This document shows, piece by piece, positions 8,333-43,065 of a stretch of 64,000 bases of DNA. The translations under genes and the position numbers were made by a program. The notes under the pieces are model-generated. The model searched no databases. It saw only the letters and a program-made list of their open reading frames with translations, and was not told the DNA's origin. Position 1 is the stretch's first letter; each line of letters opens with the position of its first letter. Origin of the DNA: Caldisericaceae bacterium. Lineage in GTDB: Bacteria > Caldisericota > Caldisericia > Caldisericales > Caldisericaceae. Location: contig JALVXB010000001.1 in assembly GCA_027023025.1 (NCBI GenBank), forward strand, positions 3,645 to 67,644, in the 5' to 3' direction.

Positions 8333-8718
8333 GGGGAAGAGTTTCTGCCTTAATAACGAACTTTTAAGGTTGTCATTCTGAAGGAGCTTGCAAGTGAAGC
8401 ATCTCTGCCTTAAAAACGAAACATTAGGAAAAGTGCAGCCAGCGGCTTTTATCTTTTACCTTCTACCCCAATAGGAAGAAAAATTGGAAAGGAAACTCCG
8501 TGTCCGCTCTAAAGGGATGAGGTCCTTCGCTCGCTTGCGCTTGCTCGAGGACGACGGGGAGGGAGAAATCCTTCGCAAAGACGGCTCAGGACGACGGGAA
8601 GAGTAAGTACTCGTTAGCCCGACATATTGGGAGAAAACACTTCCAGAGTAAAAAAATAATTGAAAAAGGACGACCGCCACCCGTCACTCTGAGCGAAGCG
8701 AAGCATCTCTGCCTTAAC
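8333..8718 (+). repeat. composite repeat (partial A, A variant with insertion, T-rich module, module C, module D, A copy)
   Basis: The A variant is at 8372-8413 (GTCATTCTGAAGGAGCTTGCAAGTGAAGCATCTCTGCCTTAA). Module C is at 8491-8556. Module D is TCCTTCGCAAAGACGGCTCAGGACGAC. An A copy is at 8683-8718. Confidence 0.8.
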
Positions 8719-8844
8719 AACCTTCCCTATAAATCCCTATTCCTGTAGGTTTTCTATTCTTTTTCAAAACTTTTTTAAAAATTCTCGCAAAATTCTTTCA
8801 AAATCGTGAAACTTTTTGTTGAGTTTTCCGTCTAATGTATAGAG
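8719..8844 (+). repeat. family-B repeat module, copy 3
   Basis: AACCTTCCCTATAAATCCCTATTCCTGTAGGTTTTCTATTCTTTTTCAAAACTTTTTTAAAAATTCTCGCAAAATTCTTTCAAAATCGTGAAACTTTTTGTTGAGTTTTCCGTCTAATGTATAGAG. Confidence 0.9.
8808..8832 (+). promoter_or_regulatory. ECF-sigma-type promoter candidate GAAAC-N16-CGTC
   Basis: GAAAC at 8808-8812, a 16-nt spacer, CGTC at 8829-8832. Confidence 0.5.
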
Positions 8845-13664: not shown

Positions 13665-13903
13665 TCCTTCTCAAAAACGGCTCAGGACGACGGAGAGGAT
13701 GGTCACTCTTCGCTGCCCTAACGAAAACACATTTTGGCGGGTCATCCTGAACGAAGTGAAGGATCTCTACCTTAACGACCATACTTTTTGAAAAGCGTAA
13801 CTAACGAGTCGCTCTGAGCGAAGCGAAGAGTCTCTGCCTTAACAATCTTTGCTTTGTTTACATTGAAAACTGCATAAAATTTTGAAAAACGGCTCAGTAC
13901 GAC
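13665..13903 (+). repeat. repeat cluster (module D x2, degenerate A, two full family-A copies)
   Basis: Module D is at 13665-13693 (TCCTTCTCAAAAACGGCTCAGGACGACGG) and about 13885-13903. Family-A copies are at 13741-13776 and 13808-13843. The linker CCATACTTTTTGAAAAGCGTAACTAAC matches 1236-1262. Confidence 0.85.
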
Positions 13904-14627: not shown

Positions 14628-17219
14628 TTACGGAACGGTAAAACTGTAGAGGATTTTTGAGAATCCTGCCCACGCCTTGCCGAAGTCTTCAGGGGTTGCG
14701 TCAAACTCAAGCGTGTAAATAATGTCGCCTTTTTTGAGAAAGAAAAGCGCAACTTTTAAGTCCATAGGATTGCCCTTTTCGTCTTCACCTTTTCCGCTTA
14801 CGACTAGTTTGTAAAAGTTTTGCCCGTTTATCTCAACGCTCTTTTCTTCCAGCACCTTTTCGTTGTCAAGAAATTGCGTTTTTATGTATTTCAAAAATTC
14901 CTCTTCGTCGATGCCTTCCTTTTTAAGGTCGTCGTGATAGATAAAAACTGATGCAACATATCCGTCTTTAAAGCCAGGGCTGTCTATCCTTATGTCCGTA
15001 TCTTCGTCGGGATTTTCTTCCAGCGTCCAGCCCTCTGGATAGTAAAACGCATATTGGTTATTTTTAAACTTTTTAACGGGGGTGATCTTTTTCAAAACCG
15101 CAGAGATAGTTTTATTGCCCTGCAGAGAGATTTGCTCCGCATAAGTTTCGTATCCCTCCTTTTTTAACTCCACGGTAAACTGCCCAAAAGAAAGCGTAAA
15201 GTCGTGCGGCGTTTTAAACCCCGTGTCCCTCCCGTTTATAAAAATCTCTGCACCCTGCGGGGTGGAATTCACTTTAAGCACATAGGTTGCTTTCTGCAAA
15301 CTCACATCCACGCTGGCCGTTTTGCCAGTGTTTACTTCCACTTTTACAGTTGCGCTTTTGTATCCTGCTTTCTTCAGCGTGATTGTGTGCACTCCGGTAG
15401 GCACGCCCTTAATCATATTTGGAGTTTTTACGCCCTTGTCGCGCCCGTCGACGAAAATCTCCGCACCGCTTGGATGCGAAACTATGCTGAGGTAACCTCC
15501 CAGCGCCTTCAGTTCAAAGTTTACGCTGACCGTTCCGCCGTTTTTCAGGTTTACCGTTTTGGTCGCACTTTCGTACCCTGCCTTTTTTACGGTCACTTCG
15601 TATGTGCCTTTCTGCGTTTCCTTTACTTTGTTCGGAGTTTTCAGCCCCGTGTCCCTCCCGTTTATGAAAATCTCTGCACCCTGCGGAGTGGAGTTTACGC
15701 TTATTACCATTGCCTTTTTAACGACGATTCCGCTGCCCGTGTTTTCGTTTGTGCTACCGCTTTGCGCGCTTTCTCCGCCTGTTGCACTGCCGCTGGTACC
15801 GTTAGAACCTCCGTTTGTTCCTATCTGCGAGGTCTGGGAAGTTCCGTTTCCACGGATTGCCACGCTGTTTCTGCGGTGTGCAGAAGCAAAAACTATAGTT
15901 CCAATAATTGCAACGAGGAGCGCCGCAATTATGCCGAGCACGACTTTGCTGCGGAACAAACTCTGGACGCTTACCTCGGGCAAACTTACCCTGGGAATTT
16001 TTCCGAAAGCGCTCTTTTTTGTTTTTCCGACACCTTCTATTATTTGTGTGCCTCCTTTTACTTCAGCGGGCACTTCCGGTGCACTTTCCTTTGCAATAGA
16101 CTTCTCGTCTTTTAACTTGCTGGCCTTTACATCTGGAGTTGCAGCTTTTCTCTTTGCAGCCGAAGCAGTAGCACCGTTGCCCAGGACGACAGTTTCACCG
16201 GGCTCATCGCTTTTTGCATTTTCCTTTGCTGCTCCAGATTCGCCCGAAGGAGCCACACTCGAAGAAGCCTTACCTTCACTTAAAACGACCGTCCCACTCT
16301 TTTCTGCGCCTTTAGCCTGCGGAACTTCCTCCTTTTTCAAAATTACGGTTTCGCCCTTTTCTACTTTGTGCTCCTTTTGCGGAATTGCTTTGCCCGCAGA
16401 AATTTCTGACAGGTCTTTCAGCAGCTCTTCTGGGTTCTGGTAGCGCTTTTTGGGATCTTTCTCGAGCAATTTAAAAATAACTTTCTTTAACTTTTCAGGC
16501 ACATCGCTTAAATTGATGGGCGGCACTTCTTTTGTAAGGTGCATACTGATAACGGACCACGGCGTTTCCCCGTCAAATGGCACTTTTCCCGTAAGCATCT
16601 GGTACATCGTGATGCCCAGCGCATACAGGTCGCTCCGAATGTCTGCTTTTTGTCCTTTTGCCTGCTCAGGCGACATATAAAAAGGCGTGCCCAGAATGGA
16701 GTCTGCAGCGGTAAGCCCTTCGCCTCCGCTGAGTTTTGCAATACCAAAGTCCATTACCTTTACTTTTCCGTTTGCAGTAAGCATAATGTTCTGCGGCTTG
16801 ATGTCGCGGTGCGCGATAAGCCCTTTGCTGCGGGCATAACCCAGAGCCTTTGCAACTTCCGATGCAATGCGCACCACTTCCTCGTACGGGAGCGAGCCTT
16901 TTTCCTCTAAAATCTGTGAAAGCGTTTTGCCCTGCACGAACTCCATTACGATAAAGTATGTTTCACCGTCTTTTCCAAAGTCGCGCACCCGTGCAATGTT
17001 TCCGTGCTTCATTCTTATTGCAATTTCTGCCTCTTTCAAAAAGCGCTTTACGAAGTTTTCGTTTTCTGCGTATTCTGAGTGCAGAACTTTAATTGCAACG
17101 ATTTCGTTCGTCTTGAGGTCGCGCGCAAGGTAAACGGTTGCCATACCCCCGCTTCCCACTTTGTCGTATATTTTGTACTTGCCGCTTATTACTTTGCCTA
17201 TGTACTTAATGTGTACCAC
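14628..17219 (-). CDS. Hanks-type Ser/Thr protein kinase with TM helix, PEGA-domain ectodomain repeats and C-terminal PsbP/DcrB-like domain
   Basis: Kinase motifs are GSGGMATVY, VAIKVL, HRDIKPQN, DFGIAK and SPEQ. The TM helix is VVLGIIAALLVAIIGTIVFA. At least three PEGA repeats are present (STPQGAEIFINGRDTG.KTP...KKAGYE). The start codon is GTG. Confidence 0.9.
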   Translation of the reverse strand: MVHIKYIGKVISGKYKIYDKVGSGGMATVYLARDLKTNEIVAIKVLHSEYAENENFVKRFLKEAEIAIRMKHGNIARVRDFGKDGETYFIVMEFVQGKTLSQILEEKGSLPYEEVVRIASEVAKALGYARSKGLIAHRDIKPQNIMLTANGKVKVMDFGIAKLSGGEGLTAADSILGTPFYMSPEQAKGQKADIRSDLYALGITMYQMLTGKVPFDGETPWSVISMHLTKEVPPINLSDVPEKLKKVIFKLLEKDPKKRYQNPEELLKDLSEISAGKAIPQKEHKVEKGETVILKKEEVPQAKGAEKSGTVVLSEGKASSSVAPSGESGAAKENAKSDEPGETVVLGNGATASAAKRKAATPDVKASKLKDEKSIAKESAPEVPAEVKGGTQIIEGVGKTKKSAFGKIPRVSLPEVSVQSLFRSKVVLGIIAALLVAIIGTIVFASAHRRNSVAIRGNGTSQTSQIGTNGGSNGTSGSATGGESAQSGSTNENTGSGIVVKKAMVISVNSTPQGAEIFINGRDTGLKTPNKVKETQKGTYEVTVKKAGYESATKTVNLKNGGTVSVNFELKALGGYLSIVSHPSGAEIFVDGRDKGVKTPNMIKGVPTGVHTITLKKAGYKSATVKVEVNTGKTASVDVSLQKATYVLKVNSTPQGAEIFINGRDTGFKTPHDFTLSFGQFTVELKKEGYETYAEQISLQGNKTISAVLKKITPVKKFKNNQYAFYYPEGWTLEENPDEDTDIRIDSPGFKDGYVASVFIYHDDLKKEGIDEEEFLKYIKTQFLDNEKVLEEKSVEINGQNFYKLVVSGKGEDEKGNPMDLKVALFFLKKGDIIYTLEFDATPEDFGKAWAGFSKILYSFTVP

Positions 17220-17245
17220 CTCTCTTTGCCGTGTGCCTTAACCAA

Positions 17246-18166
17246 TTAAAATGCCTTTTTTACGAACTTCAGGTAGTAAAGCGCTAAAAGCGCAAAAGCC
17301 AGCACGAGCACGAGTGTAATGTACATAAACTTCCTGCGTGACTTTTTCCCGCCGTCCTGCAAATTGCCCCGTTCCTTACGCATAGGAACGCTTTCTGCAA
17401 TAATCACTGTGATGTTGTCCTCTCCCCCATTTCTATTTGCACGGTCAATCAGCGCCCGCACCTTTTCCTCAGTTGAGAGCTTACTTTTCAGTACGCTCTC
17501 CATCGTTTTTTCACTGACCATATTGTAGAGCCCGTCGCTACAGAGGAGCACTTTGTTTTTTTCGTTAAGCGCAACTTCCGGATAGGTTTCAACTTCTACG
17601 CCCGCCTTTACCCCCAGGGCGCGCGTCAGCACATTTTTCTGCGTGCTCTCCCTTGCCTCTTTTTCACTGATCATCCCATTTTCCAACTGGTACGCAACGA
17701 GCGTGTGGTCGTGCGTAACTTGCGAAAGTTTACCGTCTTTTAACAGATAAACTCTACTGTCCCCCACATTGCCCGCAGACAAAACGCCGTTTTTTATAAA
17801 AGTAGCCGCTGCAGTCGTTCCCATTTTGCCGCTCAGATTGTGCGCTTCTGCGTACTGAAAAATTTTTTCGTTTGCTTTCTTCAGCACGCTAACGATGAAT
17901 GCCTCAGGGTTTGGAAAATCTGTCTGCTTTTCGAACACTTCTTTTGCAGTTTGTGCAGCAATGGTGCTTGCAACTTCCCCTTTTTCCATGCCCCCCATCC
18001 CGTCAAAAACGGCAAGGAAAACTGTTCCTCCTTTTTTGAGCACTACGAAGTCGTCTTCGTTGTTTGTCCTCTTTCTCCCTACATCTGTAAGTGCAGAGCA
18101 GGAGAGCCCCTCAATCTCTCCTGCATCCTCCTTTTTTGCAAGTTTCAGCGTTTTTGCCTGCTTCAT
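17246..18166 (-). CDS. PP2C-family Ser/Thr phosphatase with C-terminal TM anchor
   Basis: Motifs are RTNNEDDF, VFDGMGG, LLCSDGL and GGEDNITV. The C-terminal helix is FMYITLVLVLAFALLALYYL. Confidence 0.9.
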   Translation of the reverse strand: MKQAKTLKLAKKEDAGEIEGLSCSALTDVGRKRTNNEDDFVVLKKGGTVFLAVFDGMGGMEKGEVASTIAAQTAKEVFEKQTDFPNPEAFIVSVLKKANEKIFQYAEAHNLSGKMGTTAAATFIKNGVLSAGNVGDSRVYLLKDGKLSQVTHDHTLVAYQLENGMISEKEARESTQKNVLTRALGVKAGVEVETYPEVALNEKNKVLLCSDGLYNMVSEKTMESVLKSKLSTEEKVRALIDRANRNGGEDNITVIIAESVPMRKERGNLQDGGKKSRRKFMYITLVLVLAFALLALYYLKFVKKAF

Positions 18167-18173
18167 TACCCGT

Positions 18174-19838
18174 TTATGCCTTCTTGAATGTCATCTGCAC
18201 GCGTGCAAGTGTCACGGTGTCTCCGTCTTTTAACTCTTCACGCGTAATTTTATTACCGTTTACATAGGTGCCGTTCGTGCTTGCAAGGTCGTAAAGCACA
18301 AACTTGCCGTTTTCAAACTTTACCTTTGCGTGTTCCGACGAAACTGAAGGATCGTCCAAAACTATGTCGTTGTCCGCACTTCTTCCTATGTTCGTCGTGT
18401 TCCCTAACTTGAAGCTCTTTCCGTCACTGTTTCTTATAAGGTATGCAAGAGGCACGCTCTTTCCACCTAAAATTACCGTTTCGCCAGATGACGGAGCCTG
18501 TTTTTCGCGCACAGGTGCACCTTTTCTGGGCGTGCTCTTCCCGGGCGCGTTTGCTCTGCCTTTTTTGCTCATTAAAAGGAATGCGGCAAGCACCGCGATT
18601 ACTGCAATAAGCCCTAAAATTATCCAAAGCATTGGAACCTCCTTTTTGTCGTGTCCCTGGTCAATTTCGTAGCGGCACTTCTGAATGAACTGCTGGATGT
18701 ACGGATGGCCCGGATACATCTGCTCGACGATACCAAACTCCTTCAACGCCTTTGAGTAGTACCCGTTCCACATAAGTTCAAGCGCCTTTTTGTAGTGCTC
18801 GTCAAGAGAGCCCTGATGCGGAGTAACTCCCACTTCCTTCAAAAATTCCTTTGCAATGTTAATTGGGACGAGGAAGTTAAACCCCTCAATCGTCTGCCCG
18901 GTATTGTAGTCAATCGAGCCAAAGGTAGATATACCAATTACTTCGCCATTTTCGTTAAGAGCAGGTCCCCCTGAATTCCCGTGATAAATTGCAGCATCCG
19001 TCTGGATGACGCTCCAACCTCCTGGCATCTGCTTTATTGCACTGACGATACCTGAAGTTACAGTAGGAAGCGTAGCGCTTTCTCCCTTGAGGTACGGATG
19101 GAATGTGGCAACGCCCGGATAGCCGATGCAGTAGATTTTCTCGCCAACGACCGCCTTTGAGGAATCTCCCAGCGCAATCGTGGGCAGCTCTTCGTTCGTT
19201 TCAACTTTCAGGATTGCAACATCCTTTCCCGTGCCAACGCCCGACGGGTCGCCCACCTTTTTGATCTCACACTGCAAACCTTTCTCTGCAACGGCAATGC
19301 CCGGAATGGACTTTCCCTGAACTGCAAAAACGGTTTCCGTCACATTTGTAATCTGTGCGTGGTTCAGCAAAAACATAAAGAAGCCGTTCATAAACGCTTT
19401 TGCCTGCGCCTGCGTGATAGAGCCGTCTCCAAGTTGGTTTTCCGTCTCTTTCATCACGACCGTTTTGAGCAGCATAAACTTTTTGAACTGGTCAGTAAAC
19501 TTTACGACATGTGCGTTCGTCACGATGTAGCCGTCTGGCGTAACGATGAAACCGCTTCCTGATACGCCGGTTTTTGCGTGCTCTTTCCAGGTGCCGCCCT
19601 GTTTGTCCACTGTGAAGTGGAAGTTGTCGTCGTAGCTTGCAGACGGTGCAATCACATCGCCTTCAATAATCGTTTCTATGTACACCACTGCAGGCTCTGA
19701 CAACGCAATAATTTTGTCAGGAGACAGCGCCTTTCCGTTTTCCGCGCGGGCAACCTGTCCGTAGGGCAGTGCCGCAAGCGCAAAAAACAGTACGGCAATT
19801 AAAAGCACGACGCCTTTTTTAATGTTCGTTCTCTTCAT
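18174..19838 (-). CDS. secreted trypsin-like (S1/DegP-type) serine protease - TM helix - cytoplasmic FHA domain fusion
   Basis: Signal peptide is MKRTNIKKGVVLLIAVLFFALAALPYGQVARA. The catalytic triad context is TNAHVV, DVAILKV and GNSGGP. The TM helix is MLWIILGLIAVIAVLAAFLLM. The C-terminal FHA is IGRSADNDIVLDDPSVSSEHAKVKFENGKFVLYDLASTNGTYVNG. RBS AAAGGAGG. Confidence 0.85.
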   Translation of the reverse strand: MKRTNIKKGVVLLIAVLFFALAALPYGQVARAENGKALSPDKIIALSEPAVVYIETIIEGDVIAPSASYDDNFHFTVDKQGGTWKEHAKTGVSGSGFIVTPDGYIVTNAHVVKFTDQFKKFMLLKTVVMKETENQLGDGSITQAQAKAFMNGFFMFLLNHAQITNVTETVFAVQGKSIPGIAVAEKGLQCEIKKVGDPSGVGTGKDVAILKVETNEELPTIALGDSSKAVVGEKIYCIGYPGVATFHPYLKGESATLPTVTSGIVSAIKQMPGGWSVIQTDAAIYHGNSGGPALNENGEVIGISTFGSIDYNTGQTIEGFNFLVPINIAKEFLKEVGVTPHQGSLDEHYKKALELMWNGYYSKALKEFGIVEQMYPGHPYIQQFIQKCRYEIDQGHDKKEVPMLWIILGLIAVIAVLAAFLLMSKKGRANAPGKSTPRKGAPVREKQAPSSGETVILGGKSVPLAYLIRNSDGKSFKLGNTTNIGRSADNDIVLDDPSVSSEHAKVKFENGKFVLYDLASTNGTYVNGNKITREELKDGDTVTLARVQMTFKKA

Positions 19839-19998
19839 TTTTATCCTCCTTTAACATTTTTTCAATTGCACTTTGAATTTGTGCAAGCCCTCTTATCGGC
19901 CTTTCCACATTTTTCTGGATGTAGGAAACTGCTCCCACCCATACGCCTTTTTTCCGCTTCAACCTCACTAAAAACGACACAAATTTTTCTTCTTTCAT
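19819..19998 (-). CDS. candidate 59-aa small protein (below the ORF-track cutoff), overlaps the protease-FHA start by 20 nt
   Basis: Hand translation gives MKEEKFVSFLVRLKRKKGVWVGAVSYIQKNVERPIRGLAQIQSAIEKMLKEDKNEENEH. The RBS is weak (CTGAG). No family was recognised. Confidence 0.25.
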   Translation of the reverse strand: MKEEKFVSFLVRLKRKKGVWVGAVSYIQKNVERPIRGLAQIQSAIEKMLKEDKNEENEH

Positions 19999-20417
19999 CT
20001 CAGTTAAATTGTAAACTTGCCTGACAACAAAAAATCAACATTCAGAAAGTGCTGATAAACAGAGGGATGAAATAGAATTTGATTTCGGCTTTTTGAGGGA
20101 ATTAGTTTCTATTTTTTACGGAGCTTAGCAGCAGAAACGCTCAAGCAACTGGTAAAACATTTTGTCCACGCTTACGCATAAAGACGCAATCGAACCTATC
20201 TCGTGAACTTAATAACTCTGCCTCAAAATCTGCAGGGAGCACGGAAGAAAAAAAGGCCCTTCGCAGAAAAAACGCCCTTCGCAGGCGGGCATTGCTTATT
20301 CTCTGGAAACTAACCTAAACTGTAAAAAACAAATGGAATGTAAAAGTAAAGTTCGGTAAAGACTATCCAAAGTACATAAAAATATTCTAACAGCAATTCG
20401 CACAGCGCAGAAAAACT

Positions 20418-20790
20418 TCACTCGCTCTTTATTGCCTCAACGGGGTTTGTTTTAGATGCAAAGAGGGCAGGGAGGTATGAGAAGAGGAAACCTAAGAGAA
20501 GAGAGATCAGGGTAACGAGTATGAGGATGTTAATGGGGATGTAGTAGTTCCATCCTTTGAGTTTTTCTATTATAAGGGATACTGCAATGCCTGTGGGTAT
20601 GCCTATTGTTAGCGCTACGAGTGTCGTGTTTAATCCGTTCATAGTGAACTCTTTCGTTATGTCTTTTGCAGTTGCACCTATTGCTTTCTTTATGCCTATC
20701 TCTCTCGTTCTTCTAATTACTTCTATGAATAGCAGTGCTGATAGGGATAGGAATGCAGATAGTAATGCAAGGAGTATGAAGATGGAGAGG
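20418..20790 (-). repeat. near-identical 3' coding block shared by the three FtsX paralogs (copy 1)
   Basis: The last 123 codons (LSIFILLALLSAFLSLSALLFIEVIRRTREIGIKKAIGATAKDITKEF...NPVEAIKSE) are nearly identical at DNA level to 23056-23428 and 25630-26002. Confidence 0.9.
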
Positions 20791-22937
20791 ATGATGTAAG
20801 TGGAAAGTGCAGCTGACTTTATGTCCTTTATCTCTTCTTTGGGGTTAACGATGCTTCCAGGGTATCTGTCGGAATGTCTTTTGTTAAGAATGGAAAGTGC
20901 TTCTTTTGCAAGTTTAAGCGTATCGGTATAGCTTCCGTCTTTTGCTTTTATAAGGAATGTCCCGCTCCCTACGCCTTCCATTCCTGACACAACTCTGTAG
21001 TTGGGATTTTGTGCTCTTCCACTTACGAATACCGTCCTATCTATCAATGGATTGGTGGGAGATATAATACCCACTACTTTGTATAGAAGAAACATACTCC
21101 CTGTTTTAAGGTGAAGGAGCTGTGCCACTTTGCTACCTACTACACAGGTTCCGCTTTCTTTATCTTTTAAGAACCTTCCTGTTGAAATATTGAAGTTATA
21201 CAGATATGGGAACTGTTCCGTTGCTTCTGAGATCCTTACTGTAAGTTTTTTATCGTTTTTAAGCGGGATGATAGTTTCGTAGGGAAGGTCTTTTCTGAAG
21301 CCTATGTATGCGCTATCTCTAAGTGCATTCTTCAGGTATTCGTAGTCTGAAAGTGTATAATCGGCAAATACATCTGTGTGGACGCTTTTATTCTGAGGAA
21401 TTACTCTTAGCGTTTCTGGGGCAACTTCACTTTCAAGCTGCTTCATAGATTGGGCACGAGTATACCTCAGGGCAGATATAGAGAATGCGCCCATTACTGA
21501 TATGGTGAGTATCACGAGTATTGCCTTTGAGGAGAACCTACTCCTGATATTAGAATCTGAGTGTAACAAAAGGGCAGGAGGTACTTTGAATATACTGTGC
21601 AGGGCAACATACAGGGCAATTGCAACTGCAAGCACTGCAGTAAGGGATACGAAGGTAATCGTGTACTTCCCGACGATAAAGGGAGTACGGAGAGGCGTAA
21701 ATACAGAATTTGCAAATAAGAATGTGTGTATTCCAGCAAGGTTAAAACTTTTAAACAAGGGTATGGTAATGTATAGTACGAGCAAACTGAGCAGCGCAGA
21801 AACAATTGAAATGAAGATGTACTTGCGTAGTTCCTCTGCAAAGATGTGTCTTTTATTTGCTCCTATGCTGCGCTTTATCGAAACTTCCCTTTTCTTCCTC
21901 GTAATGTTTAGAATAATGAACTCTATGCACACGAGTACTGAAATAATAAGCACAAACAGTGCTGCATAGATAATGTTCCTTATGTTTTCCTCTATGCCTT
22001 TCGCACTGAGGGCATACTTAATTCTCTGGATTGTAGAGTCTATGTGGGGATAAAGAGTTTTACCATTCCCTTTGTTTTTCATTACTCTTTCAACGAGTTT
22101 CATCGCCTCGTTGTAGTAGCCTTTGCGGGGGATTATCCAGATAGTGTTGAGCAAATCCGGATGAGGTATTTTATAGTTAGGAAAGTGCATTATGTGCTTT
22201 CCCATCACATAGTCCGCAGGTAGTTTTCCAAATGCCCTGGTGAGGAAAAGATCGCCTGGTAGTGCGGATTGTTCTATGTCCGTATACGGTTTTAAAACAC
22301 CTATTATCGTATATGTGCCGTCACTTCCTTTCAGTGTTTTACCTACCGGATTTACATCTCCAAACAAGGTCTTACTTGCTTCGTAGGTAATAATAATGGA
22401 ATGTGGAGAATCTTTCGAGTTAAAGTAGCGCCCATAAAGAAGCGGGAGATGTAAATCTCTAAAGAACGATGGCGGGAAGCGGGCAATTTGCATTTGCAAG
22501 CCTTTTGCATAAACAAAATCCTGACACACCGTATCAAGCACAGTGCAGGCGAATGCATCTTTTATGTACGGAGAGTGCTTTAATCTGTCTACATCACTCG
22601 TCGTTATGGGGTTATACTTGCCGTAATCACTTCCAGGAGAACCTTTATATTTATACTTTTGTCCAGCAATTCCCTCAATCGAAAGCTCGTGTAGTTTTAT
22701 TAAAGCATTTTCTTCAGGTGTGTGAATCACGCTCGAGTAGTTTTTAATGATGTTTGCAGTGTACGAGTAAAGCAAATTGGCTTCGATAACGGGACTGATC
22801 GGGAGAGTTTTAAAGTAGTTGTTTACTCCAGTAGTTAACCCGTCAAGTGCTGAGAATGCAAAGCCTACTGAAAATAGAGAAAAGCATATTGCAGCAATGA
22901 GCAAGGTAAGAATTATTTTATTTAATTTTTTATTCAT
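20418..22937 (-). CDS. ABC-transporter permease, fused double FtsX/MacB-type (two FtsX TM modules, two large extracytoplasmic domains), paralog 1
   Basis: 839 aa with an N-terminal TM helix and two blocks of the type KREVSIKRSIGANKRHI / TREIGIKKAIGATAKDI, each preceded by an extracytoplasmic domain of roughly 180-310 aa. Confidence 0.85.
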   Translation of the reverse strand: MNKKLNKIILTLLIAAICFSLFSVGFAFSALDGLTTGVNNYFKTLPISPVIEANLLYSYTANIIKNYSSVIHTPEENALIKLHELSIEGIAGQKYKYKGSPGSDYGKYNPITTSDVDRLKHSPYIKDAFACTVLDTVCQDFVYAKGLQMQIARFPPSFFRDLHLPLLYGRYFNSKDSPHSIIITYEASKTLFGDVNPVGKTLKGSDGTYTIIGVLKPYTDIEQSALPGDLFLTRAFGKLPADYVMGKHIMHFPNYKIPHPDLLNTIWIIPRKGYYNEAMKLVERVMKNKGNGKTLYPHIDSTIQRIKYALSAKGIEENIRNIIYAALFVLIISVLVCIEFIILNITRKKREVSIKRSIGANKRHIFAEELRKYIFISIVSALLSLLVLYITIPLFKSFNLAGIHTFLFANSVFTPLRTPFIVGKYTITFVSLTAVLAVAIALYVALHSIFKVPPALLLHSDSNIRSRFSSKAILVILTISVMGAFSISALRYTRAQSMKQLESEVAPETLRVIPQNKSVHTDVFADYTLSDYEYLKNALRDSAYIGFRKDLPYETIIPLKNDKKLTVRISEATEQFPYLYNFNISTGRFLKDKESGTCVVGSKVAQLLHLKTGSMFLLYKVVGIISPTNPLIDRTVFVSGRAQNPNYRVVSGMEGVGSGTFLIKAKDGSYTDTLKLAKEALSILNKRHSDRYPGSIVNPKEEIKDIKSAALSTYIILSIFILLALLSAFLSLSALLFIEVIRRTREIGIKKAIGATAKDITKEFTMNGLNTTLVALTIGIPTGIAVSLIIEKLKGWNYYIPINILILVTLISLLLGFLFSYLPALFASKTNPVEAIKSE

Positions 22938-23055
22938 CGTAATAACGCCTTCTTTAACCCCTCGTTTTTATGTATACTTGCTTCTTCCTTACCTATGTTA
23001 TACCAATATAAATCTTTTGCAAGAATCTGTTTTCCGTTGTTCAATAATTTCATCT

Positions 23056-23428
23056 TCACTCGCTCTTTATTGCCTCAACGGGGTTTGTTTTTGATGCAAA
23101 GAGGGCAGGGAGGTATGAGAAGAGAAAGCCTAAGAGAATGGAGATCAGAGTAACGAGTATGAGGATGTTAATGGGGATGTAGTAGTTCCATCCTTTGAGT
23201 TTTTCTATTATAAGGGATACTGCAATGCCTGTGGGTATGCCTATTGTTAGTGCTACGAGTGTCGTGTTTAATCCGTTCATCGTGAACTCTTTCGTTATGT
23301 CTTTTGCCGTTGCACCTATTGCTTTCTTTATGCCTATCTCTCTCGTTCTTCTAATTACTTCTATGAATAGCAGTGCTGATAGGGATAGGAATGCAGATAG
23401 TAATGCAAGGAGTATGAAGATGGAGAGA
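23056..23428 (-). repeat. near-identical 3' coding block (copy 2)
   Basis: See 20418-20790. An extra roughly 85-nt identity tract at 23508-23590 matches 26086-26168. Confidence 0.9.
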
Positions 23429-25617
23429 AGAGTGTAAAGGGAGGTGTATACTCGTATTACTGGTTTTATGATTTTCTCTAAATCAATTATGGAGCCTGGA
23501 GATTTATCAGGATGCCTTTTGTTTAATAAGTCAAGTGCTTCTTTTGCAATGGTAAGTCGTTCGTCAGGATTGTTTGCTTTGATGAGAAATACTCCGTTAC
23601 CAGTAAACTTAGAAAACGCACTGTTAAATTTCTCATAAGGGAAAACGCCATTGGGTATAAAAACTGTATTGTCAATTAGTGAACAACATTGATTTAATAT
23701 TCCAACAACTACATACGGAGTCTTATTACCTCCAATAATTACTGATTTACCTACATCATTAATATTAAGCATCTTTGCAACTTTAGCCCCCACAACACAA
23801 ATGTGTTCGTTATAATCACTATCCTGTACAAATCTACCCTTTTTAATGCTCAATTTAAACATAGGTTTAAATGATGCGGTTGCTTCAGATATACGGACCT
23901 GTTTAAGCACATGCGAAGTAGTATTTCCTATAGTAGCCACGCTAAAGTATTCTGGGAGTTTTTCCCGAAAACCAATCAAGGAAGCCCTGGAAAAACGCCT
24001 TTCAAGCTCGACGTAATCGGCATAGGTATAATTCGCACCGTTAAAAACCGTCTGCATCACTGAAAGCGTATTAGTATAAGGAAACGAAGAAATTCGAACC
24101 ACATCTGGAGCAATACCTCTTATTACATCATTTATATTGCTTTTAATCTCAGCATTCAGTACAGCAGGAAATACCGTGCCTGCTACTGATAATGCAATTA
24201 CGGTGACTACGATGATTTTTGCCGCATTTATTTTACCGTTTTCAGAAGACAATAAACTACTTCTTATCCCTTCTGCAGGAGCTTTGCGTATCGTCATCCT
24301 TAAAGATATGAAGACTGCAATAGCAGGCATTATTAAAATAGCAATAAAGTTGAGTGTCACGCTAATTAACCCAAATTTCATAGAGTGCTCAGCTAAAAAA
24401 GCAGACATAGTAATCGTCTGGGAAGCACTAATTCCAGATATATTTAGCATCTTTAACTTTGGGAAAAGCATTATCAGTACAATGTCACCAATAACTGCTG
24501 AAATAGCAAATGAAAACATAGTTTTAAAATAATATTCGGTGAAAATCTTCCTTATACTCTCTCCAAGTGCGCGTTTAATTGCAATCTCTCTGCTTTTTTG
24601 AGAAAGATCAAATACGATAAGTCCTATCACTCCAAACAAAGCGATGAACAACATAAACAAAGCAGCAATAAGAATAAACTTTATCTTATCTTTTCGCGAA
24701 TTAATAGTTAATAAATCACCAATCCTTTTATAAGTAGATACGATAACGGGTTTTGCATTTTCCTCTGGGTTTCCCTTGTTCTTTATTTCTTTCTTCAACA
24801 ATGATAAAGCCTGATTGTAATAACCCTTTTTAGGTATAACAAGCATTACGAGAGACCTGTTAACAGAATCAGTTTTACCGGAAGGAATGTATCCGCCTCC
24901 GTAGAGAGGGCTCTGTAATAAAACAAGCATATCGGAACTAAGCGGCTTTAACACTCCTACTATTTTGTAATAAGTACCTTTTGATGAATCATTTTTGTCT
25001 GTACCAAACACACCATTAACACATAGAATTTTCTTTCCAACTGGATTAATGTTACCAAACATTTTCCTGCTCAGGTTATCAGTAATAACGACTGTATAAG
25101 GATCATTACCCGAAAAGTATCGTCCGTATTTTAATGGTAAATGAAGGTCTCTGAAAAACTTCGGAGGAACTTTCTTTAAAATCACATTAGTACCTTTGAA
25201 TTTAACAAAAGTATCAGAGGGGTAGGGTACGAGAAACGCATCTTTTATAAAAGGAGAGCGTAATAGGGCCTCTACATCTTTCTGAGTTATAAACTTTATA
25301 CTATTCCAATCCACTTGCGCTGGATACTTCAGAGTCTTTTTAGTGATTATTGTAGCAAAATCTACTTCCTTACTAATTTCCAGAAGTACCGCATCCGGAT
25401 TTTGAAATGTATTCTTAGTTAGCTCTCGTGCATATGCCTCAAATGGCGTTTCTATGTGAACGACGAAAAACGGAGTAAATGGAATGTTGTTAATTTCTTT
25501 TTTTAATTCGTTTCTGTTCCCATCGAGTACAGATGAAGAGAAACTCAACGAAAAGAAGAAACAACTTACGACGAGTAATACCATTATTCTCTTTATTTTA
25601 CCAGATTTTTTGTCCAT
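23056..25617 (-). CDS. ABC-transporter permease, fused double FtsX/MacB-type, paralog 2
   Basis: 853 aa with the same architecture. FFRDLHLPLKYGRYF and VGVLKP motifs are shared with paralog 1. Confidence 0.85.
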   Translation of the reverse strand: MDKKSGKIKRIMVLLVVSCFFFSLSFSSSVLDGNRNELKKEINNIPFTPFFVVHIETPFEAYARELTKNTFQNPDAVLLEISKEVDFATIITKKTLKYPAQVDWNSIKFITQKDVEALLRSPFIKDAFLVPYPSDTFVKFKGTNVILKKVPPKFFRDLHLPLKYGRYFSGNDPYTVVITDNLSRKMFGNINPVGKKILCVNGVFGTDKNDSSKGTYYKIVGVLKPLSSDMLVLLQSPLYGGGYIPSGKTDSVNRSLVMLVIPKKGYYNQALSLLKKEIKNKGNPEENAKPVIVSTYKRIGDLLTINSRKDKIKFILIAALFMLFIALFGVIGLIVFDLSQKSREIAIKRALGESIRKIFTEYYFKTMFSFAISAVIGDIVLIMLFPKLKMLNISGISASQTITMSAFLAEHSMKFGLISVTLNFIAILIMPAIAVFISLRMTIRKAPAEGIRSSLLSSENGKINAAKIIVVTVIALSVAGTVFPAVLNAEIKSNINDVIRGIAPDVVRISSFPYTNTLSVMQTVFNGANYTYADYVELERRFSRASLIGFREKLPEYFSVATIGNTTSHVLKQVRISEATASFKPMFKLSIKKGRFVQDSDYNEHICVVGAKVAKMLNINDVGKSVIIGGNKTPYVVVGILNQCCSLIDNTVFIPNGVFPYEKFNSAFSKFTGNGVFLIKANNPDERLTIAKEALDLLNKRHPDKSPGSIIDLEKIIKPVIRVYTSLYTLLSIFILLALLSAFLSLSALLFIEVIRRTREIGIKKAIGATAKDITKEFTMNGLNTTLVALTIGIPTGIAVSLIIEKLKGWNYYIPINILILVTLISILLGFLFSYLPALFASKTNPVEAIKSE

Positions 25618-25629
25618 TATCTTTTCCCT

Positions 25630-26002
25630 TCACTCGCTTTTTATTGCCTCAACGGGGTTTGTTTTTGATGCAAAGAGTGCAGGGAAATATGAGAAGAGGA
25701 AGCCTAAGAGAAGGGAGATCAGGGTAACGAGTATGAGGATGTTAATGGGGATGTAGTAGTTCCATCCTTTGAGTTTTTCTATTATGAGGGATACTGCAAT
25801 GCCTGTGGGTATGCCTATTGTTAGTGCTATAAGTGTCGTGGTTAATCCGTTCATCGTGAACTCTTTCGTTATGTCTTTTGCCGTTGCACCTATTGCTTTC
25901 TTTATACCTATCTCTCTCGTTCTTCTAATTACTTCTATGAATAGTAGTGCTGATAGGGATAGGAATGCAGATAGTAATGCAAGGAGTATGAAGATGGAGA
26001 GA
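25630..26002 (-). repeat. near-identical 3' coding block (copy 3)
   Basis: See 20418-20790. Confidence 0.9.
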
Positions 26003-28179
26003 AGAGTGTAAAGGGAGGTTGCGCTTCTCAGTATAATGTTTGCATACTTTTCAATGTCGTACATCACTCCCGGGTTTTTATCAGGATGTCTTTTGTTTAA
26101 TAAGTCAAGTGCTTCTTTTGCAAGGGTAAGCCGTTCGTCAGGATTGTTTGCTTTGATGAGGAAGATGCCGCTGCCCGTATACCTCTTCGTCGCGGAAAAC
26201 CATTCATTTGTAAGTTCTCTTTCTGACACTGCATAAAAAACCGTATTATCTACAAGTGAATTGGATTTGCCTGCTATGCCTATTATCCTGTAAAGGTTAT
26301 TAGAGGAACCGTACATGTGAATAGCGATAAAGCTGCCTACTTTAAGATGTTCTTTTTTTGCAACTTCTGCACCTATCACGCAAACTTTTTCTCCTATGTC
26401 CTTATCTTCTATAAAGCGCCCTTCTGACACCGTGAAATTATAGATTTTATCCGTATCAGGCGTTGCTTCTGCATAACGCACTCCTGACATTGGGTCAGAC
26501 ACGGGAACGCTATGTCTGAAGCCGATAAGCGCTCTTCCTTTTAGCGCATTCCTCAGTACAAAGTAGTCTTTAAGTGTATACTCAGGCGCGCTAATTGCAA
26601 CGGAAATTGTTTTTCCTTCGCTGAGAAATGTTTTTGCAGGAAGAATTCTCACGACCTGCGGCACGGTCTCTTTTTCGGAAAGTTCTATTTTCCTCTCAGT
26701 GTAGTACTTAATTGCATAAGAAGACATAAGTACGGATACGGATATTGCAATAAGTAATATCACAATGGCTTTATTAAGGTGTTTCTTTGCATTTTCTTTT
26801 CTAAAGTGAGGCGACATAGGCGGGAACCGAGAAAGCGCAGCAAAAGGAATTTTTACGGAAAAGGCGAATGTTGCAATAATAATGAGAAAAGCAGCAAGGA
26901 CACCTGATAATCCTATGTAAAGGGGATGTGCTCTTAAAGAATAACCAACAGGGACGAGGAAGCGGAAACTTCCGCCGATGTTTAAGGCAGAAAGTTTATG
27001 TCTGAGCAATACGAGAAGCAGAAAACTTACGAAAAAAGCAAGTACTGCATACACACCGTTTTGCAGTAAAAACTCGTAGAACAATTGCCTAACAGATGCG
27101 CCTATTGCACGCTTTATGGCAATTTCTCTTTGCCTCAACTTAATTAGAAGGTTTGCAAAAACTGCTGAATCAAATATCGAAAGCAGCAAAAGAAAGATAC
27201 CAACGAGAATAATGAACTTCAGTTTGTTTCTAATTGCATCGGTGGACATTATCGTTTCAAGCGAGCGGTATGTCGGAAGAATTTTTGGATATACTTCTTC
27301 CTGCTGAAGGTTGAACTTCTGCAAAAATGTGTTTATTACTTTAAGTGCTTCTTTGCTTTGCCCTTTTTCTGGAAGAACAAACAGCTCCTCTTCAGGGAAA
27401 AACGACTTATTATTTACCGCACCGAAAGACGGCCTCTCAGGAAGTGGAATGTAGTTTTCCGGTAATATACTGAACCCACCGCTTTCTCCAAATGTCACAT
27501 AAAAGAATTCGTCGGGGAGCGGTTTTAATACGCCGCACACGCGGTACTTCTTAGTGAAGTGGGCATTCTGGAACGGAGTAGTTTTCGCAGGATTCGTTCC
27601 GTAAACAAACTTTCCGACTGCAGAGTTACTGCCAAACAGGGCTTTTGCACCTCGGTATGTAAGAACGATTTCGTTAGAAGTTTTCGGTAGCCTTCCAGAA
27701 TAAAGAGGCAGATTAAGCCCCTTAAGAAAATTGTAAGGAAGCGGTGTGAACGGCACAATTACATCTTTACTCACTTTTATGTATTGAGAAGAAAGAATGA
27801 TGTCACTGAGGTATGTACTCTTTATGCACCGTTGCGCGGCCAAACTCTTTACATCTTTTGAGGTAATAATGCGAGGAGGGATGATGTACTTCGGAGCAAT
27901 GCGAGAGATGTTTACGAAACTGTCCACAGTTCTTTCTCTACTGACTACGAGGAGCATCCTGTCCGGGTCATTCAAAACGGAGTCGTACTTATGGAGCAAC
28001 TCCTGTTCGGACTTATCTGTAAACTGCACTTTTATGAGCCTGGATGCATATATGCGGGATTCAGCACTTTTAAGCTCCGCTTCAGTGCCCTGATAGACAG
28101 CACTCGTGAACAGAACAACGAACGAAGAGATAAGAAACACGAGTGCTACAAGAACCGCTAAAACACTTTTCCTTTGCAT
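25630..28179 (-). CDS. ABC-transporter permease, fused double FtsX/MacB-type, paralog 3
   Basis: 849 aa with the same architecture. Its stop lies 12 nt upstream of the paralog 2 start. Confidence 0.85.
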   Translation of the reverse strand: MQRKSVLAVLVALVFLISSFVVLFTSAVYQGTEAELKSAESRIYASRLIKVQFTDKSEQELLHKYDSVLNDPDRMLLVVSRERTVDSFVNISRIAPKYIIPPRIITSKDVKSLAAQRCIKSTYLSDIILSSQYIKVSKDVIVPFTPLPYNFLKGLNLPLYSGRLPKTSNEIVLTYRGAKALFGSNSAVGKFVYGTNPAKTTPFQNAHFTKKYRVCGVLKPLPDEFFYVTFGESGGFSILPENYIPLPERPSFGAVNNKSFFPEEELFVLPEKGQSKEALKVINTFLQKFNLQQEEVYPKILPTYRSLETIMSTDAIRNKLKFIILVGIFLLLLSIFDSAVFANLLIKLRQREIAIKRAIGASVRQLFYEFLLQNGVYAVLAFFVSFLLLVLLRHKLSALNIGGSFRFLVPVGYSLRAHPLYIGLSGVLAAFLIIIATFAFSVKIPFAALSRFPPMSPHFRKENAKKHLNKAIVILLIAISVSVLMSSYAIKYYTERKIELSEKETVPQVVRILPAKTFLSEGKTISVAISAPEYTLKDYFVLRNALKGRALIGFRHSVPVSDPMSGVRYAEATPDTDKIYNFTVSEGRFIEDKDIGEKVCVIGAEVAKKEHLKVGSFIAIHMYGSSNNLYRIIGIAGKSNSLVDNTVFYAVSERELTNEWFSATKRYTGSGIFLIKANNPDERLTLAKEALDLLNKRHPDKNPGVMYDIEKYANIILRSATSLYTLLSIFILLALLSAFLSLSALLFIEVIRRTREIGIKKAIGATAKDITKEFTMNGLTTTLIALTIGIPTGIAVSLIIEKLKGWNYYIPINILILVTLISLLLGFLFSYFPALFASKTNPVEAIKSE

Positions 28180-28212
28180 CGCTTTGCCCCTCTATTCGTA
28201 ATTTACTAAACT

Positions 28213-28233
28213 GGCGGGGATTGCCTCCCCGCC
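28213..28233 (-). terminator. stem-loop GGCGGGGA-GGCAA-TCCCCGCC after the BNR gene
   Basis: An 8-bp GC-rich stem lies 8 nt after the stop at 28241. The trailing AGTTTAGT on the transcribed strand is only a weak U-tract. Confidence 0.45.
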
Positions 28234-28240
28234 CAACAAT

Positions 28241-35545: not shown

Positions 35546-36628
35546 TTATAACTTTCTTACAAAGCGCCTGTCCAGGCTGCTTACGCCAAGGCCGTTACCC
35601 TTGCTTACGAACAAACGCCCATCTTTTAGATATGCGCCACCCGTAACGGGGCTTCCGTCAAATGTTAAGAATCCGTCGAGGTCTGCAAAGTCAAAGCCGC
35701 CTGCATTAAACACGGAGAATGCAGCAGAGATGAGCAAAGGGCTGGAAAGCATACACCCCAGCATCGCCTTTCGGTTAAATGTGTGCACAAGGTTTACGAG
35801 TTTCAGGGATTCCTCGATGCTGCCCTCTTTGGTCATCTTTACATTTATAAAGTCCGCTGCATCTGCCCGTAAAATCGTAAGCGCATCCTTACTGCTTTTC
35901 ACCGCTTCGTCTGCCATAATGGGAACGGGCGAGCGTTCCTTTACATACCTCAGCACAAGAATGTCGTTTGCACTGACGGGCTGCTCGATAAACGAAATGC
36001 GGTAATTCTTCACGGCGTTTGCAAATTTTACTGCTTCTTCCTTTGAATACCCCTGGTTTGCGTCGAGATATATCTTTACAACACTTGAAAGGGCGCGCAC
36101 TTCCTTTACGCGTTTTTCGTCCTTTTCAAGGTCCAGCCCAACCTTCATTTTCAGTGCTTTGAAGCCTGCATTTATAAGTTTCTCTGCGCTTTCAATCGTG
36201 TGCTTTTCGCTGCCTATGCTAATCGTCGCAGAGGTAAAAATCGGTTTTCCTTTTGCGCCAAGCAGGTCAGCAAGCGGAAGGTTTGCGTGCTTTCCCAGTA
36301 CATCCCAGAGCGCCATACTTACGGCAAGTTTTGCAGAGTGCGGAGCAGAAATTTGCTCCATCTTTTTCAGAATTTCTAACCGCAAAAACGGGTTTTTCCC
36401 GAGCAGGAACTCTCTAAACTCCAGCAAAAAAGTAGAAACGCCTTCAATTGTTTCCCCAAGCACATACGGAACGGGCACCGCTTCTCCGTAGCCCGTAATT
36501 CCGCTTTTCGTTTTTACTTCTATTATTAAACCCCTGTATGCGTCCCTTTTGCCCGTTGCAATTGCAAATGTTTCCTTCAGGGGCACTTCTGCATAATACA
36601 CATTAACTGCGTCTATTCTATCTTGCAT
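35546..36628 (-). CDS. L-Ala-D/L-Glu (dipeptide) epimerase, enolase superfamily (YkfB/YcjG-like)
   Basis: MR/MLE-type TIM barrel layout: ...LKMKVG..., YLDANQGY, FIEQP, IMADE and ADFINVKMTK. I chose ATG 36628 (RBS AAGGAAGGG) rather than the track's TTG 36637. Confidence 0.75.
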   Translation of the reverse strand: MQDRIDAVNVYYAEVPLKETFAIATGKRDAYRGLIIEVKTKSGITGYGEAVPVPYVLGETIEGVSTFLLEFREFLLGKNPFLRLEILKKMEQISAPHSAKLAVSMALWDVLGKHANLPLADLLGAKGKPIFTSATISIGSEKHTIESAEKLINAGFKALKMKVGLDLEKDEKRVKEVRALSSVVKIYLDANQGYSKEEAVKFANAVKNYRISFIEQPVSANDILVLRYVKERSPVPIMADEAVKSSKDALTILRADAADFINVKMTKEGSIEESLKLVNLVHTFNRKAMLGCMLSSPLLISAAFSVFNAGGFDFADLDGFLTFDGSPVTGGAYLKDGRLFVSKGNGLGVSSLDRRFVRKL

Positions 36629-37736: not shown

Positions 37737-37737
37737 A

Positions 37738-43053: not shown

Positions 43054-43065
43054 CTATCACGCATC

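Follow-up and report, generated by a model that had tools for sequence, protein, structure and literature searches.

Evidence for domain-restricted concerted evolution in a tandem array of fused FtsX-type permeases from Caldisericota

How can genes that have diverged over most of their length still end in nearly the same few hundred nucleotides, and which ATPase would serve the proteins that they encode? Both questions are raised by a 64-kb stretch of DNA from a Caldisericaceae bacterium (GenBank assembly GCA_027023025.1, contig JALVXB010000001.1), hereafter called the window, which carries on its minus strand three tandem genes for fused double-FtsX permeases that belong to type VII among ATP-binding cassette (ABC) transporters. 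The array begins with g3 (25630 to 28179; 849 amino acids, aa), continues with g2 (23056 to 25617; 853 aa), which starts 12 nucleotides (nt) past the g3 stop codon, and ends with g1 (20418 to 22937; 839 aa), as an initial annotation of the window had described. Each open reading frame (ORF) has two MacB_PCD and two FtsX matches in Pfam. Overall, the three are 39 to 43% identical in protein and 52 to 54% identical in nucleotide sequence (codon alignment), and the body of g3 is 30 to 34% identical to those of g1 and g2 in aa sequence. The closest related contigs are Caldisericales and Caldisericaceae metagenome-assembled genomes (MAGs), which places the organism in Caldisericota. We consider it probable that the array consists of ancient, divergent paralogs whose last block is kept alike by concerted evolution, that this block mediates the rearrangement of whole units, and that the ATPase comes from a core locus elsewhere in the genome.

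The near-identical block lies at 20416 to 20790 in g1, 23054 to 23428 in g2, and 25628 to 26002 in g3 (minus strand throughout). The g1 copy is 95 to 97% identical to the other two at the nucleotide level, the g2 copy aligns to transmembrane helices (TM) 2 to 4 of MacB, including ERTKEIGVRMAIGA, and the g3 copy has variants of its own, such as the one giving FSYFPALF. The block encodes the membrane part of TM6, a coupling helix, TM7, TM8, and a C-terminal helix, and it runs through the stop codon and 2 nt beyond. It begins at residue ∼731 in g2, leaving the stalk part of TM6 and all of TM5 variable. Over the last ∼124 codons, nucleotide identity in 30-codon windows was 0.93 to 0.99, against ∼0.3 to 0.55 in most windows of the body (some local windows reached ∼0.67; codon alignment), so the near-identity claimed by the initial annotation for the last 123 codons was borne out. 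The jump in identity was sharp, with an onset at ∼20790, 23428, and 26002 and an end 2 nt past the stop codon, beyond which the flanks are unrelated.

The block differs from the body most clearly at synonymous sites. The three pairs of block copies mismatched at 11, 18, and 13 of 372 positions, compared with a mismatch rate of 0.53 to 0.56 in the body (binomial P, ∼1e-100). By the Nei-Gojobori method, synonymous divergence (dS) in the block was 0.09 to 0.15 and nonsynonymous divergence (dN) was 0.004 to 0.015, whereas synonymous sites in the body were saturated (pS, 0.74 to 0.81; dN, 0.71 to 0.84); Fisher P values for the synonymous contrast between block and body ranged from 1e-30 to 1e-42. 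The comparison of the 3' block with the rest of the gene that the initial annotation proposed thus gave the result expected of conversion, in that synonymous divergence falls only within a sharp-edged tract. Because synonymous sites are themselves nearly identical in the block, a process other than protein-level selection is needed. We also considered an 80-aa antisense ORF with a TTG start (20557 to 20799, 23195 to 23437, and 25769 to 26011, plus strand) as a cause of the conservation. The antisense frame of the block has few stops in all lineages; we rejected the ORF as spurious because the great majority of block substitutions are silent when read in the sense frame (8 to 13 synonymous and 1 to 4 nonsynonymous differences).

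Identity reaches beyond the block in some pairs of genes. The additional tract of ∼85 nt that had been claimed for g2 and g3 is present, at a length of 106 nt and an identity of 90% (23503 to 23608 in g2 and 26077 to 26182 in g3, minus strand). It encodes FLIKANNPDERLT.AKEALDLLNKRHPDK in g2, gives 30-codon windows of 0.82 to 0.83 nucleotide identity, and is also common to Y, a paralog found in relatives, which is 0.89 identical to g2 there. From ∼26175, the 3' end of g3 is 93% identical over 548 nt to Y of locus L094, and upstream of the block the identity between Y and g3 is 0.90 to 0.99 and extends ∼60 codons further, part of this stretch being common to g2. A GENECONV-like permutation of runs at polymorphic sites gave a P value of ≤1e-4 for g2 and g3 only; this test is under-powered, as few polymorphic sites are left in the block because all three copies have been homogenized together. 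The binomial and Fisher tests of mismatch density given above are decisive.

To place these patterns in a wider frame, we gathered members of the family from other Caldisericota assemblies and compared their bodies by aa and their blocks by nucleotide sequence. All comparison loci (designated L followed by a number) are MAG or metagenome contigs, and the MAGs are short-read assemblies. Bodies that are orthologous across genomes were 50% (g2 and L003_a), 53% (L003_b and L007_b), and 62% (L007_a and L084_a) identical in aa sequence, and the blocks of body orthologs in different lineages were only 73 to 78% identical at the nucleotide level. Within genomes, paralog bodies were only 29 to 38% identical in aa sequence; the blocks, taken as a fixed 375 nt, were 95 to 97% identical in the window, 91% identical between L003_a and L003_b, and 97% identical between L007_a and L007_b, the last two being 100% identical over their final ∼100 codons. 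Block paralogs within a genome are therefore more alike than orthologs between genomes, which is the hallmark of concerted evolution. Moreover, the 5' boundary of the homogenized tract falls at nearly the same codon in three lineages (109 to 124 codons from the C terminus). This common boundary, together with the clustering of blocks within genomes in three lineages, argues for persistent concerted evolution and not one recent accident. Variant patterns inside the block are mosaic among the ten copies of the species complex to which the window belongs, and mosaic variants along with tracts of differing length suggest multiple conversion events with different end points.

The initial annotation had read the block-wise identity as the signature of recurrent gene conversion or recombination, and comparative sequence data strongly support this reading through the synonymous contrast, the clustering of blocks by genome in three lineages, and breakpoints that fall at the block. 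Ratios of dN to dS (omega) between orthologs were 0.17 for g2 and L002_a (95% aa identity) and 0.08 for the g1-like gene of L094; these values indicate purifying selection, which argues that the genes are functional, as does the confidence of the MacB-like structural model described below.

Three other accounts of the near-identical ends can be weighed against recurrent conversion. The first is a single recent event, either one 3'-end replacement or a segmental duplication, that hit all three genes. The copies in the window differ by 3 to 5%, so that their last homogenization was not very recent, and this may be counted in favor of a single event. We nonetheless regard it as improbable, since L003 and L007 were independently homogenized with the same boundary, and neither the mosaic variants among the ten block copies nor the extended tracts of differing length in different pairs are what one event would leave.

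Still harder to defend is an assembly artifact, in which the repeat was collapsed or copied by the assembler or the joins are chimeric. Assemblers do struggle with this repeat, and many related MAG contigs (L001, L004, and L089 to L093) end in or beside the block. However, the three copies differ from each other at 11 to 18 copy-specific positions, and the pattern recurs in unrelated assemblies of three lineages. Further, scaffold L001 (ENA ERZ23491300), assembled independently from a metagenome, matches positions 18455 to 25745 of the window at 99.96% identity; with its first nucleotides within the g3 block, it covers the last part of g3 and then g2 and g1 and has the copy-specific variants, including those of g3. 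The repeats are therefore not an assembly collapse, a concern that the initial annotation had raised. Finally, purifying selection or codon bias with no recombination has next to no chance of being the explanation, for although the C-terminal FtsX domain is the most conserved part of the superfamily, synonymous sites are nearly identical too (dS as given above, against a saturated body), the block differs by 22 to 27% of nucleotides between lineages yet is 91 to 100% identical within genomes, and the identity does not end with the coding sequence but takes in the stop codon with 2 further nt and, for g2, ∼20 nt of spacer.

The array itself appears to be a systematic assembly breakpoint, possibly owing to strain heterogeneity. 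A contig of L095 (GCA_027082015.1) carries the same BNR and SLH surface-protein genes as the window, and the end of this contig corresponds to window positions 28198 to 28240, 18 nt before the start codon of g3. An exact look-up of g3 returned no record, and exact scans of JGI metagenome contigs for a 26-mer and a 38-mer of the block were negative.

The block also marks the points at which closely related arrays differ. In the species complex of the window, blocks are 92 to 97% identical and there are at least five body types: g1 (P0241), g2 (P0001), g3 (P0243), X (P0003, which is L004_b and L086_a), and Y (P0242). Two agreeing MAGs, L002 and L094, have the order thioredoxin-like gene, small ORF, g2, Y, g1, and the window has the order g3, g2, g1. 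Positions 2291 to 3736 of L094 are 91% identical to positions 23589 to 22144 of the window; hence, the 118-nt spacer between g2 and g1 in the window (22938 to 23055, minus strand) corresponds to the spacer between Y and the g1-like gene in L094. The first ∼20 nt of this spacer past the g2 stop codon match the start of the spacer between block and ATPase gene in relatives. The window would therefore differ from L094 by exactly one unit, as recombination between the g2 and Y blocks would produce. In L002, homology to g2 of the window ends 8 nt past the stop codon. L004 matches the window at 98% identity over a stretch that opens with the block and takes in the operon encoding an FHA protease and a kinase, but it has body X in place of g1, and in L086 body X (96%) precedes the ATPase gene.

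As to the mechanism, Pfam scans of the larger ORFs of the window, which left a few ORFs of at least 150 aa unscanned, found no recombinase, integrase, or transposase domain, and the block copies are direct repeats only. On these two grounds, we rejected site-specific recombination of the integron or shufflon type and an origin as a mobile element, and general homologous recombination is the likely mechanism. The ∼375-nt direct repeats would then act as substrates for unequal or ectopic homologous recombination, which would delete, add, or re-flank whole units of spacer, body, and block, such that closely related genomes come to differ in array content. In L003, a degenerate remnant of the block (5062 to 5249; ∼72% identical to block positions 197 to 384) lies without a gene body 250 nt upstream of L003_a and is probably the relic of a deleted unit.

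We turn to the ATPase. The initial annotation held that the array lacks a cognate ATPase gene and that the only ABC ATPase in the 64 kb belongs to a YtrA operon. The second statement agrees with what we found, as the only ABC Walker A motif in the window is in the ORF at 6700 to 7605, whose product is an ATPase of the DrrA/PmtA type and whose operon also encodes a GntR (YtrA-like) regulator, YbjQ, and an ABC-2 membrane protein. The first holds for the window, where no MacB/LolD/FtsE-type ATPase was found and where a tblastn search with the MacB-type ATPase of relatives returned only a weak 23% match to the DrrA-type ATPase and one with their DUF4352 lipoprotein returned none. It does not hold for the relatives, in which a LolD/MacB/FtsE-type ATPase of 232 to 235 aa is encoded directly after the last permease gene (L003, L006, L007, L084/L085, L086, and L091). 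From these gene orders, the family is not orphan, its ATPase being encoded at a core locus.

The core locus has a recurrent composition. In L006 and L007, the ATPase gene (232 to 233 aa) directly follows a permease gene and precedes one for a DUF4352 lipoprotein, and the order permease, ATPase, DUF4352 also holds for L084/L085 and L086; the lipoprotein genes are at 1590 to 2456 (L006), 11147 to 11659 (L007), 10715 to 11200 (L084), and 2290 to 2769 (L086). L006 has in addition a 122-aa protein with multiple TM helices encoded between the ATPase and the lipoprotein, and both the lipoprotein and this protein may be further subunits or a substrate-handling partner. The L003 contig ends inside the N terminus of the ATPase, right after the second permease gene.

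Several observations bring this core locus close to the organism of the window. Block copies 93 to 95% identical to those of the window are found immediately upstream of the ATPase gene in L086 and L091. The ATPase P0123, which scores best against LolD, MacB, DarD, and FtsE models, is encoded on short contigs of the JOHN19-1 metagenomes, a project from which scaffold L001 also came. The first nucleotides of these contigs lie either a little upstream of the ATPase start or in the extreme end of the block, which suggests a break of the assembly at the block. The array in the window has the appearance of a satellite to the core locus, and we infer that the organism has at least one further block-bearing permease with an ATPase that g1 to g3 use. 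Since L003 and L007 each have two complete fused permease genes and one ATPase gene, the family is most simply read as forming alternative permease complexes with a single ATPase. The proposal of three specificities served by one engine fits these two operons, so that several permeases with one engine are plausible; for the genome of the window itself, it extends what is seen in relatives.

Taken together, g3, g2, and g1 are best explained as ancient paralogs of a fused MacB/FtsX-type permease with eight TM helices that is confined to a small Caldisericota clade. Their two extracytoplasmic domains, N-terminal TM module, and TM5 have diverged to ∼30 to 35% aa identity, while recurrent homologous gene conversion keeps the last ∼124 codons near-identical within each genome. 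The permeases would need a LolD/MacB-type ATPase dimer. At the core locus, the last permease is followed by the ATPase and the DUF4352 lipoprotein, and in many cases a thioredoxin-like membrane protein and a small secreted peptide rich in cysteine are encoded ahead of them. As a satellite, the array of the window would most likely use the ATPase encoded beside another block-bearing permease gene elsewhere in the genome. Of these points, the sequence comparisons show the conversion, the boundary held in several lineages, the gain and loss of units at the block, and the nearness of permease and ATPase genes in relatives, and it is the occurrence of the ATPase in the genome of the window and its sharing that are inferred.

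It is important to note that several points weigh against this reading. The dS of 0.09 to 0.15 between blocks of the window is close to the dS of 0.15 to 0.21 between orthologs of the window and L002; therefore, conversion in the lineage of the window has not been very recent or frequent. Joins across a 375-nt repeat can be chimeric, which makes single rearrangements less certain than the overall pattern, and the least certain join is that of body X, which stands before the FHA operon in L004 and before the ATPase gene in L086. A picture that is consistent across several assemblies is more reliable than any single one. The presence, number, and location of the ATPase gene in the genome of the window are deduced from relatives and sister metagenomes.

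The predicted structure of the permeases bears on what the block contains. An AlphaFold model of g2 (mean predicted local distance difference test score, 83.5; predicted template modeling score, 0.79) has eight TM helices and two extracytoplasmic domains. Its first half runs through TM1, exterior domain 1, TM2, a short cytoplasmic helix (342 to 350), TM3, and TM4, and its second half through TM5, exterior domain 2, TM6, a short helix (758 to 767), TM7, TM8, and a C-terminal helix (846 to 852); TM4 (417 to 443) is joined to TM5 (460 to 502) via a short helix. The model thus presents g2 as a head-to-tail fusion of two MacB-type units of four TM helices. A Foldseek search with this model placed Escherichia coli YbbAP first (9ge7_A; E value, 3.8e-18), followed by MacB, Spr0694-0695, LolCDE, BceAB, YtrEF, and HrtBA, all of them members of the MacB/FtsX-type (type VII) ABC group. 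The C-terminal half aligns to the MacB structures 5lil, 5nik, and 5gko (E values, 1e-15 to 1e-18). At the sequence level, RTREIGIKKAIGA aligns with ERTKEIGVRMAIGA and, at the coupling helix, RTREIGIKKAIGATAKDI aligns with ERTKEIGVRMAIGARQINI of MacB 5lil, where the model has its helices 342 to 350 and 758 to 767. In MacB, the loop between TM2 and TM3 forms the major coupling helix and the C-terminal helix forms the minor one (PMC5985334). The Pfam matches of each window protein and the model of g2 thus show, twice over, the build of type VII transporters: a unit of four TM helices in which a large extracytoplasmic domain separates TM1 from TM2 and the C-terminal part forms an FtsX-type bundle of three helices, with the major coupling helix in the cytoplasmic loop from TM2 to TM3.

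Within this group, the permeases form, on sequence searches, a small and distinct Caldisericota clade. A word-index protein search with the 123-aa block gave no match, and when 1.84 billion representative proteins were searched exhaustively, only 11 clusters reached an E value of ≤1e-30, with scores dropping sharply from 129 to below 90 bits. More distant database relatives are mostly Bacteroidota proteins of the same architecture. The best NCBIfam match is ADOP (TIGR03434), and we rejected membership in that family because scores of 106 to 148 bits are far under its cut-off of 622.3.

Does the constant block then exist because all paralogs must fit one partner? The initial annotation identified the constant part as the last FtsX module with the loop that contacts the ATPase, and indeed the block holds the loop that aligns to the MacB major coupling helix. 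Homogenization could be adaptive, with all paralogs fitting one partner, or a self-reinforcing neutral by-product. Under the adaptive alternative, selection for one shared ATPase or a common membrane partner fixes conversions and sets their boundaries. The block contains, besides the coupling loop, a C-terminal helix matching the minor coupling helix of MacB; its boundary has been kept in three lineages over ∼25% nucleotide divergence; and operons with two permeases and one ATPase exist. Against this, the N-terminal FtsX half must dock the second nucleotide-binding domain (NBD) of the homodimer, yet it is not homogenized (nucleotide identity, 0.4 to 0.55) and keeps only the motif RE(I/V)x(I/V)K(R/K)(A/S)(I/L)G. 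Moreover, lineages with blocks ∼25% apart in nucleotide sequence still have the core motif of the coupling helix, REIGIKKAIGA, unchanged, and ordinary purifying selection therefore suffices for docking. A neutral model also fits the boundaries equally well: conversion would persist where the paralogs are alike enough for RecA pairing and would stop where homology runs out, which it does in the divergent exterior domain and again in the unrelated 3' flank. Thus, the claim of a constant ATPase-docking module stands as far as the presence of the coupling loop in the block; it falls short in that the N-terminal coupling loop is not homogenized and selection cannot alone give synonymous identity. 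We hold an adaptive docking module to be possible but less likely than not.

The neighbors of related arrays offer leads to function. Directly upstream of the permease gene, L003, L084/L085, and L002/L005 encode a membrane-anchored protein with two thioredoxin-like CxxC domains (in L084 split into two ORFs), and beside it lies the gene for a peptide of 85 to 103 aa with a Sec signal sequence and 8 to 9 cysteines (positions of the pair, 8488 to 9886 in L003, 5982 to 7333 in L084, and 6409 to 7816 in L005, which corresponds to 8572 to 9989 in L002). The L003 and L005 peptides have the C-terminal motif CDCxxPY...GG..W...SY...C...SGC...C in common, and the peptides had no match to any known family. 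These neighbors suggest export of, or immunity to, disulfide-rich secreted peptides. The permeases might accordingly be interchangeable export or immunity transporters for disulfide-rich peptides of the bacteriocin type, with the window array supplying extra orphan specificities and the variable exteriors picking the peptides. The ATPase scores under the cut-off but well against bacteriocin-export, DevA, and LolD models, and array content varies between strains, both of which suit this idea. We still judge it unlikely, for tblastn found no match to the thioredoxin-like protein or the Cys-rich peptides in the window, the small peptides resemble no known family, and orthologous bodies are under purifying and not diversifying selection (omega, 0.08 to 0.17). 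Giant CLIPPER/DUF11, SLH, or BNR surface proteins recur as neighbors, flanking the arrays in the window and in L002/L005, and would suit a role in envelope assembly equally well. A bolder version, to which we give slightly less credence again, has the constant module as the recombination handle of a cassette system in which strains of this group would acquire, lose, and swap whole exterior specificities on one ATPase, the permeases being exporters or immunity pumps for the Cys-rich peptides of the core locus. The closest analogy would be the orphan immunity and toxin cassette arrays of polymorphic toxin systems, built here from ABC permeases.

In the window, two giant surface proteins and a kinase and FHA-protease operon lie next to the array, as initially described. 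Upstream on the same strand are genes for a 940-aa BNR/Sortilin protein with a Cu_amine_oxidN1 tail and a 1187-aa DUF11(CLIPPER)/PKD/SLH protein. A terminator-like hairpin follows g1 (20273 to 20287, minus strand; CGCCTGCGAAGGGCG then TTTTTT) and is the probable end of the transcription unit of the array. The downstream operon (14628 to 19838, minus strand) has genes for a trypsin-like protease that bears an FHA domain at its C terminus, for a PP2C phosphatase, and for a Ser/Thr kinase in which three PEGA domains are combined with a PsbP-like C terminus; it is syntenic in L004 (3595 to 8805; 98% nucleotide identity), directly after the last permease gene.

Two further features of the window were recorded. 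Dispersed intergenic repeats of 42 to 100 nt with the core GTCACTCTGAGCGAAGCGAAGCATCTCTGCCTTAACAAC occur at 1137 to 1534, 2969 to 3203, 8372 to 8844, and 13680 to 13864 (plus strand), with inverted copies at 55839 to 55972 and 58262 to 58525 and some tandem runs at a spacing of 54 to 67 nt. They look like repetitive extragenic palindromic (REP) or miniature inverted-repeat transposable (MITE) elements, and no transposase domain was found in the scanned ORFs of the window. A long operon at 35546 to 50878 (minus strand) resembles one for the recycling of cell-wall N-acetylmuramic acid (MurNAc) and anhydro-MurNAc: it encodes NamZ, SIS/MurQ-like proteins, AnmK, a GH3 NagZ-like enzyme, a beta-lactamase-fold protein, an amidohydrolase, an MR/MLE-type epimerase, and a GntR/UTRA regulator, along with OppB/OppC-type permeases (43066 to 44948) and an SLH-anchored solute-binding protein (44995 to 47244). 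No OppD/F-type ATPase was found anywhere in the 64 kb, and OppB/OppC are thus the second ABC system of the window without ATPase genes.

The locus amounts to a natural experiment in which TM6 to TM8 and their coupling helices have long been held constant within genomes, whereas both exterior domains and the remaining TM module have diverged almost past the point of DNA alignment, and it marks which parts of mechanotransmission machines are interchangeable and which are common. It leads to the testable prediction that one ATPase dimer can be joined by any of several alternative permeases. For annotation, duplicated FtsX permeases that seem "orphan" can belong to a satellite of a core locus that bears the ATPase gene, and repeats of ∼375 nt systematically break MAG assemblies. 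Caldisericota have almost no experimental biology, so any handle on their envelope systems is useful.

Among known systems, YbbAP of E. coli resembles the window proteins in that two MacB-type units and two extracytoplasmic domains are combined in one polypeptide chain, which is served by a separate LolD-like ATPase (PMC12646458, PMC5985334). YbbP differs in having two extra linking helices and therefore 10 TM helices (PMC5985334), compared with the 8 of the g2 model. Sequence identity between YbbAP and g2 is ∼13%, with a TM-score of only 0.43 to 0.45. In E. coli, ybbA adjoins ybbP, whereas the window array has no ATPase gene, and we know of no paralog array or homogenized module for YbbP. MacB is alike in its MacB_PCD exterior domain, the major coupling helix motif between TM2 and TM3, and the C-terminal helix, but it is a homodimer with an N-terminally fused NBD, while the window family has two units in one chain and an NBD that is encoded elsewhere as a protein of its own; none of the loci examined had a gene for a MacA/HlyD-type adaptor beside it. 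The duplicated MacB_PCD-FtsX architecture is common to ADOP, the duplicated orphan permeases of Acidobacteria, and to the duplicated Bacteroidota FtsX permeases of ∼800 aa. Both are multi-paralog families, typically without an adjacent ATPase gene; this is true of the window but not of the clade, in which the core locus ends with an ATPase. To our knowledge, block homogenization has not been described for ADOP. Shared, or "multitask," ABC ATPases, in which one ATPase gene serves more than one membrane component, are familiar, and in LolCDE two different permeases use one LolD dimer. Those two permeases are in one complex, however, whereas a fused permease of the window type is already a pseudo-dimer, so that sharing would take the form of alternative complexes.

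With respect to the evolutionary pattern, tufA and tufB are a further case of concerted evolution of paralogs. Long-lasting conversion of part of a gene between prokaryotic paralogs has been described for the mtrA duplicates of methanogens (PMC4632066) and for RF1/RF2 (PMC4530459). As in these three cases, old duplicates in the window are more alike within a genome than orthologs are across genomes. The window case differs in that a single TM module is homogenized and the rest is almost unalignable at the DNA level, and in that the block is common to up to five or more paralogs and marks the breakpoints of unit insertions, deletions, and rearrangements. A literature search on gene conversion in FtsX permeases found no report of a homogenized TM module, and domain-restricted concerted evolution in type VII ABC permeases is apparently unreported. 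Paralogs that undergo gene conversion are well known in bacteria (PMC4632066, PMC4530459), and there are precedents for permeases of the fused MacB type and for orphan duplicated ones (PMC5985334; ADOP). What is new is the combination: a module constant within genomes across a phylum-level clade, up to five or more divergent paralogs that have it in common, rearrangement breakpoints at the same place, and an ATPase at a separate core locus.

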